A DNA stretch of 64,000 nucleotides. Origin: a bacterium. Lineage in GTDB: Bacteria; Ratteibacteria; UBA8468; B48-G9; DTJG01. The notes under the pieces were generated by a model, which saw nothing but the letters and a program-made list of their open reading frames with translations, did not search any database and was not told the origin of the DNA. A program made the position numbers and the translations under genes. Shown here piece by piece: positions 26,472 through 46,655 of this stretch; position 1 is the first letter of the stretch; every line of letters begins with the position of its first letter. The stretch is from NCBI GenBank assembly GCA_021800535.1, contig JAJYYV010000005.1, positions 3,607-67,606 on the forward strand, read 5' to 3'.

Positions 26472-26544
26472 TGGGCGGTGCAGGATTTGAACCTGCGGCC
26501 TCTTCCGTGTGAGGGAAGCGCTCTTGCCGCTGAGCCAACCGCCC
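26472..26544 (-). tRNA. tRNA-Val (CAC)
   Basis: GGGCGGT acceptor stem, CTTCC-CTCACAC-GGAAG anticodon arm, GCAGG-TTCAAAT-CCTGC T arm; CCA not encoded. Confidence 0.96.
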
Positions 26545-44978: not shown

Positions 44979-45506
44979 TTATGGAAGTATTTTTTTCATA
45001 TTATTTCTTCCTAATGGTTTATCAACATCTGTTAGACCTTCTCCACTAAAACTTTTTATTTCTTTTCCATTTATTAAAAAACGAACTTTTTTAATCTGAG
45101 GGAATTGTGTTGTAGTAAAAACTATTTGTGAAAGTCTTCCTTCCATGTTTTCTATTCCGCCTCCAGATTCTATTTTTTTATTAAAATCAAGATAAGCAAT
45201 ATTATTTTTTATTTCTATATTATTTAGTAGAGTTCCTGAAGGAATAAAAGAAAAATAGTTTAACTTTTTTTCTTTTTTATCTGGTCCTTTTAACAATTCT
45301 TCTATAGCATATTGAATTTTTTCATTGGTAGTTAATAAATATTTATTGCTTTTTTTTTGTATGGAAATCAAAACAGCATGATGTCCTTTTGTTTTAAAAA
45401 AATACAATTTAATCTTAGGATATAAAAACCCGCTTTGCAGTGCAAATAAAATAATAATAAGTATAATTAAAATAATAGATAGTACATATAATATAAATTT
45501 TTTCAT
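44979..45506 (-). CDS. GerMN-domain protein
   Basis: N-terminal TM, ELLKGP, IPSGT, AYLDF, QIVFTTTQF..IKKVRFLING. Confidence 0.85.
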   Translation of the reverse strand: MKKFILYVLSIILIILIIILFALQSGFLYPKIKLYFFKTKGHHAVLISIQKKSNKYLLTTNEKIQYAIEELLKGPDKKEKKLNYFSFIPSGTLLNNIEIKNNIAYLDFNKKIESGGGIENMEGRLSQIVFTTTQFPQIKKVRFLINGKEIKSFSGEGLTDVDKPLGRNNMKKILP

Positions 45507-45513
45507 CTTTTAA

Positions 45514-45884
45514 CCTTTTTCCTCATACTCCTATTTGTCCGCGTGGGCATTCCTTAGATGTGGAGGCGGCGGGTACTGCCCCCTCATCCGTCGCATTCGT
45601 TTCGCTCGCTCCTTAAAGGGGGAACAGGTTCCCCCTTAATATTCCCCCTAAAGCATGAGGAAACCCTTTTTCCTCATACTCCTATTTGTCCGCGTGGGCA
45701 TTCCTTAGATGTGGAGGCGGCGGGTACTGCCCCCTCATCCGTCGCATTCGCTTTGCTCGCTCCTTAAAGGGGAACAGGTTCCCCCTTAATATTCCCCCTA
45801 AAGCATGAGGAAAACCTTTTTCCTCATACTCCTATTTGTCCGCGTGGACATTCCTTAGATGTGGAGGCGGCGGGTACTGCCCCC
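45514..45884 (-). repeat. Tandem ~150-bp repeats (about 2.5 copies), each containing the tmRNA 3' end
   Basis: Copies start at 45514, 45665 and 45815 (periods 151 and 150); tmRNA 3' 23-mer at 45561-45583, 45712-45734 and 45862-45884; few substitutions between copies. Confidence 0.95.
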
Positions 45885-46209
45885 GCGTCCAGAAGAGAAC
45901 AGGAAAGATATCTACCTATGTATCTCCGGTTTTTTTATCTTTTTCCAGTCTCCCCGAAGCAGGATTTATGGAAAAGATGTTTCTGTTATACTTTCTTCTG
46001 ATATCCAGAAACAAAAGTTTCTCAGAATAAGCCCTTTAGCGACTCGTTTTCAAATTCCAAGGGCGGGAATTTGAACGAGTGGCTGTTTAGTTAAGCAGCC
46101 ATAAAATTTGCCGTTGTGGCAGTTATGTTTTACCGGTTTTTAAAGGGCCCGGCACCTTTACAGGCAATCTTTTCCTTTTTTCTCTAATGTCGAAGCCTAT
46201 TTCGCCCCC
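45862..46209 (-). ncRNA. ssrA: tmRNA (one-piece), tag (A)ATTANFMAA
   Basis: 5' GGGGGCGAAATAGGCTTCGAC, 3' GCGGG-GGCAGTA-CCCGC-CGCCTCC-A, G3:U70 pair; ATAACT-GCC resume codon, tag ORF 46120-46091; adjacent to smpB. Confidence 0.95.
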
Positions 46210-46655
46210 CTACCTTTCATCTTTCTTTCTATTTGTCTTTTTACCTCTTTTTCTTTTATGACCTGTCTTTTATCAAAAAATTTCTTACCTTTTACAAGAG
46301 CAATTTCTATTTTTATGATACCATTTTTATTAAAATACACCAAAAGTGGGACTATTGTCAATCCTTTTTCCTGGACTTTTCTTTCAAGTCTTATAATTTG
46401 TCCTTTATGTAAAAGGAGTTTTTTTTTTCTTCTTGGGTTAATTTTTTCAAAAGCAGATTGATAAGGCGCTATATAAAAATTATAAACAAAAGCCTCTTTT
46501 TTTTCTATTTTTACAAAAGAGTCTCTAAGATTTGCAGAGCCCTGTCTGATAGACTTGACTTCAGGACCATAAAGAGAAAGTCCTGCTTCTAATTTTTCTA
46601 TAATTTCATATTCATGATATGCTTTTCTATTTTCTATTTTGGGAGATTTTTCCAT
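46197..46655 (-). CDS. smpB: SsrA-binding protein
   Basis: NRKAYHEY, EAGL.L.G.EVKS, KKLLLHK, GKK..DKR tail. Confidence 0.98.
   Translation of the reverse strand: MEKSPKIENRKAYHEYEIIEKLEAGLSLYGPEVKSIRQGSANLRDSFVKIEKKEAFVYNFYIAPYQSAFEKINPRRKKKLLLHKGQIIRLERKVQEKGLTIVPLLVYFNKNGIIKIEIALVKGKKFFDKRQVIKEKEVKRQIERKMKGRGAK

Follow-up and report, generated by a model that had tools for sequence, protein, structure and literature searches.

Introduction

Behind the tRNA-Tyr gene of Escherichia coli, in the rtT region of tyrT, lie tandem units of about 150-180 nucleotides (nt), each of which ends in the 3'-terminal nucleotides of the tRNA and is co-transcribed as part of a trailer. To our knowledge, these repeats occupy one locus in one species. 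Described here is a tandem array that follows ssrA, the gene for transfer-messenger RNA (tmRNA), in a member of the uncultured phylum Ratteibacteria (GenBank assembly GCA_021800535.1). It was found in a stretch of 64,000 nt (contig JAJYYV010000005.1, positions 3,607 to 67,606), called the window in the following. The tyrT repeat region is probably the nearest known analogue of this array. Both consist of units standing in tandem behind a gene, each unit ending with the 3'-terminal nucleotides of that gene; the likeness is one of arrangement. Unlike the tyrT repeats, the window array contains a conserved, covarying module that is present at many tRNA genes and at ssrA across the phylum, and it carries, besides the direct copy of the gene end, an inverted copy of the target, here called X'.

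IS200/IS605-type palindrome-associated elements and group IIC introns recognise DNA hairpins. The units described here resemble them in having strand-specific hairpins near both ends and a short internal segment that could pair with the flank or target, as X' may do. The units differ from both in that 20-70 nt of the target are duplicated, which is not known of either.

Integrase-borne islands are known at tRNA and tmRNA genes (Williams 2002 and Reiter 1989, as cited in PMC9897764), and the same article attributes fragments of tRNA genes to the integration of islands and to CRISPR spacers. Like an island, the insert behind ssrA has the 3' part of the gene repeated on both sides (three 23-nt copies, spaced 150 and 151 nt); the gene stays whole, accretion is tandem, and tmRNA as well as tRNA genes serve as targets. 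Unlike an island, the insert measures about 100-170 nt, holds no genes and has no linked integrase, and one module family serves 12 kinds of target with inverted and direct copies that match each of them.

A third group comprises the bacterial miniature repeats, i.e. miniature inverted-repeat transposable elements (MITEs), ERIC and Correia sequences and REPINs, which are transcribed and fold as RNA (cf. PMC2229807 and PMC3116915). Such repeats are small, dispersed, protein-less and hairpin-forming, and often co-transcribed with their neighbours. The units share the first four of these features and occur, like MITEs, in many non-coding copies per genome (numbers below). Miniature repeats have fixed terminal inverted repeats, short target duplications and many intergenic sites, whereas X' and its partner are derived from the target and vary by gene, the duplicated part is of variable length (20-70 nt), and no site other than the 3' flank of a tRNA or tmRNA gene was found to be used here. 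A literature search, which did not reach subscription journals and supplements, found no description of such trailers. They are filed here as a variant that combines two kinds already described: non-autonomous elements of miniature size, and insertions directed at genes for tRNA and tmRNA.

The array is read here, with a probability of about 0.6, as belonging to a family of non-autonomous mini-elements that target the 3' flank of tRNA and tmRNA genes, and as having been amplified by unequal crossing-over. It probably consists of two full units and one truncated unit of what is termed family A, one of several families of small, GC-rich, protein-less insertion elements. The core of such elements is about 90-130 nt long and was found in this phylum only in the 3' flanks of tRNA and tmRNA genes. 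The observations that carry this reading are the architecture of the units, their restriction to these flanks, filled and empty sites in congeners, the similarity of modules across genes within a genome, and covariation in the hairpins.

Organisation of the array

The tmRNA gene was located by a match to Rfam model RF00023 at 45859-46209 on the minus strand (140 bits, gathering score 47, E = 7e-56, full model 1-374), which places the array directly 3' of ssrA. The match is full-length and above the gathering score, and smpB (46197-46655, minus strand; Pfam SmpB, E = 2e-53) adjoins upstream. The real 3' end of the tmRNA, terminating in CCUCCA, occupies 45862-45884. ARAGORN misses this tmRNA, in the window as well as in the whole genome, and the Rfam model detects it.

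An earlier note on this DNA, made from the sequence alone, had reported about 2.5 tandem copies of a unit of some 150 bp downstream of ssrA, each repeating 23 nt of the tmRNA 3' end. This holds. Tandem Repeats Finder gave 2.5 copies with a period of 150 and 97% matches (45512-45884), a second repeat search gave three copies spaced 151 and 150 nt apart, and the 23-nt end is present three times, at 45862-45884 (the gene itself), 45712-45734 and 45561-45583. The copies were also correctly said to differ by substitutions and a run indel: full units 1 and 2 differ at 5 positions, namely 4 substitutions and one indel in a C-run.

All parts of the array lie on the minus strand; contig coordinates were converted to window coordinates with an offset of 3606. 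Unit 1 (45712-45861, 150 nt; Tandem Repeats Finder, repeat search and sequence) contains, in RNA sense, a linker (D1), X', hairpin 1, a G5 box, hairpin 2, a GAGCG..GCGAC motif and the tmRNA-end copy at 45712-45734. Unit 2 (45561-45711, 151 nt) is made up in the same way and ends with the third tmRNA-end copy, at 45561-45583. Partial unit 3 (45514-45560) comprises D1, X' and the 5' half of hairpin 1. No long open reading frame was found on the gene's strand inside the units, and they hold no protein gene.

X' (CGCGGACAA in RNA sense) was placed from the sequence at 45836-45844, with further copies at 45686-45694 and 45535-45543. It is an inverted copy of the tmRNA's CUGGACGCG with a GA/GA mismatch at its centre. 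A short TGTCC/GGRCA hairpin had been proposed for each unit; these letters are better read as X', an inverted copy of the tmRNA's CUGGACGC. The two longer hairpins of the same proposal were found again. Hairpin 1 (ATGAGGAAA..TTTCCTCAT) lies at 45805-45827 and 45655-45677, with its 5' half alone at 45514-45526, and hairpin 2 (AAGGGGGAAC..GTTCCCC(C)TT), built on a G5/C5 stem, lies at 45764-45787 and 45616-45639. The G5 box (TTTAGGGGGAATATT) precedes hairpin 2 at 45788-45802. The family-A core of unit 1 was delimited at 45751-45834 by covariance model R1 (74.5 bits, E = 3e-18; G000:C28:49357-49440, where G000 is the window's own genome) and that of unit 2 at 45601-45684 (68.5 bits, E = 2e-16; G000:C28:49207-49290).

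Distribution and gene context of family A

Family A is the name given here to a core with two covarying hairpins and a GAGCGAAGCGA-type motif. Its loci follow a common plan in gene sense. The gene end and a variable linker are followed by X', which is a short inverted stretch taken from the variable-loop/T-arm region of the gene; then come an AAAGGGG box, hairpin 1, the G5 box, hairpin 2 and a GAGCG(A)AGCGA motif, and a direct copy of the gene's own 3' part closes the unit. At ssrA loci X' is a short segment complementary to the tmRNA's CUGGACGC, and the gene copy at the ssrA loci of relatives extends from tmRNA GGACGC to CCUCCA. Among related genomes, 9 of 41 contain two or three copies of the tmRNA 3' end, 150-196 nt apart.

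The unit follows tRNA genes as well. In a BLAST search the distal half of the unit recurred once in the rest of G000, 50 nt behind tRNA-Ala(CGC) on another contig, where it is followed by a decayed copy of the T-arm of that tRNA. Other copies stand in relatives behind tRNA-Ser, Phe, Val, Lys, Thr and Arg genes, and their X' and terminal copy match their own gene, not the tmRNA. Of the readings put forward in the earlier note, that of a non-autonomous mini-element directed at ssrA is the nearest; the part that fails is its specificity for ssrA, given that the elements are also found behind 11 kinds of tRNA gene.

Model R1, which was built from 20 copies, had matches in 38 of the 52 genomes of the order (up to 13 per genome). 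In the phylum 47 of 65 genomes, belonging to 14 of 18 genera, were matched; the other 18 genomes gave no match. The end of a tRNA gene or ssrA was found on the same strand within 420 nt upstream in 79 of the 89 matches (82 loci), and within 130 nt in 71. A 12-mer from the 3' end of the match's own gene (at most 2 mismatches) followed within 110 nt after the module in 73 of these 79. The twelve kinds of host gene are ssrA (15) and the genes for tRNA-Leu (19), Ala (7), Arg (6), Thr (6), Val (6), Ser (5), Met (5), Phe (4), Lys (3), Ile (2) and Gly (1).

The same context was met in metagenome contigs, in which 27 of 40 occurrences have a tRNA gene or ssrA upstream and 5 more follow partial 3' halves of tRNA genes; the remaining 8 are at contig ends with less than 220 nt of upstream sequence. 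The 20-mer of the core was also found in public records of Candidatus Omnitrophota or candidate division TA06, and had no match in viral contigs. A few Bacillota records (L050 657-929, L055 5052-5321) contain the 20-mer core of hairpin 2 on the opposite strand, directly after T-box leaders, where it looks like the terminator of the leader; this is taken as a chance likeness. In genome G009 (L032, L033, L036, L059, L064) the family-A module forms part of a larger composite, about 300 nt long, which contains additional hairpin modules. At least 11 sites of the composite were found, and several of these lie where a contig ends.

Structure of the unit

Covariation was evaluated in alignment A2 (89 copies, 85 distinct rows), which was guided by model R1. 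All 10 pairs of helix 1 and all 10 pairs of helix 2 show compensatory double changes in this alignment. Paired cells make up 92.7% of the total compared with 77.7% in shuffles, none of 500 shuffles reached any of five measures, and controls with a slid alignment dropped to 53-65% paired. An independent MAFFT/RNAalifold run found compensatory changes in 18 of 20 pairs. Across loci hairpin 2 keeps a GGGGGAA/CCCCC core, and its outer pairs vary. After two columns in which one subfamily has a bulged A were left out, 45 G-U cells stood against 6 A-C cells, an excess that speaks for the strand in gene sense as the one that folds, be it RNA or single-stranded DNA.

The pairing between X' and the start of the downstream gene copy is stronger for own pairs (mean -22.8 kcal/mol) than for mismatched loci (-16.6 kcal/mol; Mann-Whitney p = 5e-20). 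Many copies have an X' made up of two blocks, one complementary to the variable loop and the other to the T-loop GGTTC, with a GA-rich internal loop between them; some copies have GA where a plain complement would give UC. The window unit has a predicted fold of -56 kcal/mol in the sense direction (z = -2.7) and of -48.6 kcal/mol in antisense (z = -2.2). A search of Rfam 15 at E values up to 1 with the window region and ten trailer loci returned only tmRNA and tRNA matches.

Gain, loss and spread

Filled and empty ssrA sites were found in congeners. In genus g8, the empty site (L023) has its native flank directly after tmRNA CCUCCA and can be aligned on both sides with the filled site (L031), in which 195 nt (linker, X', module and tmRNA-end copy) are inserted and the native flank follows the distal copy. 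Within the window's own genus, genome G001 (L039) has behind ssrA only the linker, an X' that fits its own variant of the tmRNA, and the 5' half of hairpin 1. This remnant has the same content as the terminal partial unit of the window.

Module identity was 0.77 between different genomes of one genus at the same gene, and 0.66 between different genes of one genome. Across genera it was 0.57 for the same gene as against 0.58 for different genes. On a quick tree, rough because of the short alignment, gene labels required 42 changes (22 states; shuffle mean 60) and genus labels 25 (8 states; shuffle mean 47). The filled and empty sites together with the identity pattern indicate gain, loss and within-genome spread. 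The pattern fits vertical descent in the short term, and turnover with within-genome spread or homogenisation in the long term.

In genome G035 a module behind tRNA-Val (L089, C141) is followed by the tmRNA 3' end, and the ssrA-linked module (L022, C156) is cut short. The arrangement looks like the outcome of recombination between two copies of the element.

Other trailer families in the window's genome

In G000, 18 of the 43 tRNA genes are followed, 123-155 nt downstream, by a copy of their own last 12 nt (at most 1 mismatch). Most of these trailers are made of other module families, named B, C and D here. At least these three further families are present, on contigs C54, C69, C61, C7, C53 and others (loci L095-L103). 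Their plan begins with a linker, in which a CTTCTTTGAAA motif is frequent. The T-loop region then follows in inverted form, and a structured module separates it from a gene copy that begins at the T-loop. Six more tRNA genes of G000 have, by eye, the start of a module and no detectable copy. Families may be stacked: tRNA-Asp carries a B unit and then a C unit.

In two related genomes used as controls, an inverted T-loop copy or a 3' copy was found at 0 of 17 tRNA genes examined in G022 and at 2 of 17 in the other, and those two also carry a module. Because the controls are nearly without them, X' and the linker motif are held to come with the elements and not to be native to tRNA genes. A degenerate pattern for family B matched mostly high-GC genomes by chance and was uninformative.

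The only tRNA gene of the window, tRNA-Val(CAC) at 26472-26544 on the minus strand, has no module. About 30 nt downstream of it, however, its T-loop region recurs in inverted and degenerate form (GCAGGATTGAAAT), which may be what is left of an element since lost.

Read support and transcription

Array-specific pieces are present in Logan contigs of three independent studies (runs X1, X2 and X7), none of which spans the whole array. The presence of variant-specific pieces in three studies speaks against an assembly artefact of the bin; the copy number still rests on this assembly. In run X1 a piece shared by the units has a word depth of 70.6 compared with 35.2 for the flanking contig, depth not being equal to copy number. 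In run X2 unit-specific pieces have a word depth of 4-6 compared with 17.4 for the flank, which again is not a copy number; the lower depth may mean fewer units in that population, and no conclusion is drawn from it. An exact 41-mer of the window's tmRNA end had no match among the metagenome contigs. A terminator scan found no terminator-like site on the sense strand of the array, hairpin-plus-T sites being restricted to the strand antisense to ssrA.

Candidate enzymes and a classical island

Genes for mobilising enzymes were searched for in five genomes, three rich and two poor in elements. The Y1 transposase (Y1_Tnp, PF01797) by which IS200/IS605-type elements could be mobilised in trans was found in G009 and G022 and not in G000, G018 or G043; for G000, which is 90.8% complete, absence is not proven. 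The RVT_1 reverse transcriptase was absent from all five genomes. Y2_Tnp gave no matches in the five genomes, and since the search controls were silent too this result is uninformative. Tyrosine recombinases occur in all five, element-rich and element-free alike, and small GIY-YIG genes only in G000. The contig of the window contains no integrase, as had been stated before; all Phage_integrase matches of G000 are on other contigs.

G000 does have a classical island of about 39 kb at tRNA-Ser(GCT) (C69:1-100 and C69:38600-39530). Its repeat spans the sequence from the anticodon loop over the 3' end into the linker, and a gene for a tyrosine recombinase of 445 amino acids lies beside the tRNA gene. 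The mini-element of tRNA-Ser(GCT) is located within the part repeated by the island. Apart from the island, all copies of a gene's own 3' end on the same contig are 123-155 nt from that gene, and other 15-mer matches in G000 belong to other tRNA loci or lie near contig ends. The island at tRNA-Ser(GCT) exhibits the usual mechanism in G000 and the contrast of the mini-elements to it.

Neighbouring genes

The array is bordered downstream by a gene for a Germane-domain protein (44979-45506, minus strand; Pfam PF10646, E = 4e-24), which is followed by an Amidase_3 gene (Pfam). The neighbours of the array are housekeeping genes, and a Pfam search of them found no mobile-element gene at the downstream border. 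Partial unit 3 stops inside hairpin 1, 8 nt before the ATG of the Germane-domain gene, which it joins as TTAAAAG-ATG. Within 45507-45530, partial unit 3 provides a GAGGA a few bases ahead of this ATG, and this piece of element sequence may serve as the ribosome-binding site of the gene.

Proposed origin of the array

If the units are mini-elements, an element would be gained by insertion or recombination at the 3' part of a gene, and the gain would duplicate this part in the fashion of an attachment site. The array could have formed by unequal crossing-over between direct repeats of 70 nt (tmRNA end, linker and X'), and the same crossing-over could collapse an array to a remnant such as that in the sister genome G001. 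The unit would be read through as the trailer of the tmRNA precursor and fold into compact hairpins, with X' as a clamp that keeps the pseudo-3' part from interfering when the genuine tmRNA or tRNA folds. Mobilisation would depend on an enzyme supplied in trans.

Several points weigh against this origin. No mobilising enzyme was found to go with the elements in the five genomes, and no mechanism accounts for the fit of X' and the gene copy to every newly occupied target. Both here and elsewhere, at several loci, the truncated last unit breaks off within hairpin 1, which simple integration does not predict. Ten of the 89 model matches have no called gene (5 of them have less than 150 nt of upstream sequence); at least one of the other five shows, by eye, a tRNA end missed by ARAGORN. 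Alignment A2 was fitted to the model, a procedure that favours structure, and when the two bulged-A columns are kept the count becomes 48 G-U against 55 A-C cells and the asymmetry is gone; 49 of the 55 A-C cells fall in those two columns. The comparison of identities is based on about 90 columns. The only RNA contig (run X11) spans 45947-46151, which is the body of the tmRNA alone and not the array.

A bolder version is put forward tentatively, as possible and less probable than the plain mini-element reading. The elements might constitute a new class of mobile unit specific for tRNA and tmRNA genes, in which a landing unit acquires the direct 3' copy and the antisense clamp X' and is so re-programmed for each target. 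Its RNA, in the precursor, might act as an insulator, or as a guide-like scaffold, with the gene end as 3' 'guide', for a recombinase or nuclease.

Alternative explanations

A host RNA module, i.e. a 3' trailer acting in cis in the processing, termination or stabilisation of tRNA and tmRNA precursors, with X' pairing to the variable-loop/T-loop region and with spread by ordinary recombination instead of transposition, is unlikely, although it has the most to recommend it among the alternatives. It would suit the covarying hairpins and the G-U pairs that favour the gene's sense strand, the frequency of the elements (18 of 43 tRNA genes in G000) and the form of X', whose two complementary blocks, split by a GA-rich loop in many copies, look like a selected RNA pairing. 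Relatives nevertheless manage without the elements, as shown by the 0 of 17 tRNA genes in G022 and the 18 of 65 genomes that lack family A. Across genera, moreover, the module is no more similar behind the same gene than behind different ones (0.57 vs 0.58), the array has no terminator-like site on its sense strand, and tandem arrays, truncated remnants and stacked families such as those of tRNA-Asp are typical of selfish repeats.

Relic attachment (att) sites are a more remote alternative, and an improbable one. Integrase-borne islands would have entered the 3' ends of ssrA and tRNA genes repeatedly and have been deleted later, their att arms being left as the 'module'. A duplicated 3' part of the gene is the signature of island integration; G000 contains such an island at tRNA-Ser(GCT), with the integrase adjoining and the repeat about 39 kb away, and the ssrA islands of Dehalococcoides are a known case of tandem accretion at att sites (PMC3146451). 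That one island apart, the same-contig copies of G000 keep to 123-155 nt from their gene, and no larger element bounded by modules was seen among the loci read. The duplication starts at a point specific to the family, in the variable loop or T-loop, and not in the anticodon loop as in the island. For one conserved module to serve 12 kinds of target gene, fitted each time with its X' and copy, either numerous integrases or a single, highly promiscuous one would be required.

The earlier note had also suggested that an upstream GGAGCG could pair with CGCCUCC to form an acceptor-like stem with A3:U70, giving together with the T-arm a tRNA-like mini-helix, and that the array could yield processed small RNAs or decoys. 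Such an RNA could be CCA-tailed, be bound by SmpB or alanyl-tRNA synthetase (AlaRS), or act as a small RNA. Each unit does end with an intact tmRNA T-loop, 3' T-stem and acceptor strand, and several relatives copy the whole T-arm from GGACGC on. The proposed pairing is missing from both the minimum-energy and the centroid folds, and no covariation with the acceptor was found. GGAGCG belongs to the GAGCG(A)AGCGA motif, which is the same next to genes with different acceptor sequences (e.g. those of Ser, Phe and Leu); neither GGAGCG nor the G5 box, the other candidate for the 5' strand, changes along with the acceptor strand. The T-stem of the window copies is mismatched (GAGGG, compared with GCGGG in the real gene), Rfam gives no match to a tRNA or tmRNA on the copies, and families B and C, which copy only from the T-loop onward, cannot form a T-arm. 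A mini-helix or decoy RNA is therefore very doubtful.

An assembly artefact of the metagenome bin is hardly credible: the G000 draft has 86 contigs and short-read assemblers can miscount repeats, but contigs from three studies contain variant-specific array pieces and the same architecture is found in dozens of independent genomes and in metagenome contigs.

Further candidates were discarded. A retro-copy of the mature RNA fits poorly with copies that lack CCA and continue into the genomic flank. A diversity-generating retroelement was dropped, there being neither an adenine-specific pattern nor a reverse transcriptase; a CRISPR-like array and a degenerate second tRNA gene were dropped for poor fit. 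IS200/IS605-like, IS91-like and integron/CTX-like single-strand mechanisms are unsupported, no matching enzyme having been found. With the last-named kind, hairpins specific to one strand and target pairing by an internal segment would be explained.

Implications

Were the mini-element reading true, roughly every second tRNA gene throughout an uncultured phylum, and its single tmRNA gene as well, would bear small structured passengers that copy the tail of their host gene, and these would represent a new kind of target-specific mini-element. The elements would be substrates for rearrangement, as may be seen in G035, where a tRNA-Val module is followed by a tmRNA end. They would account for contig breaks at tRNA genes, many matches being located at contig ends, and annotators would be warned of pseudo-tRNA and pseudo-tmRNA 3' fragments that do not derive from islands. 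The phylum would also offer a natural system for the question of how precursor tRNAs tolerate a second 3' half of their own in cis.

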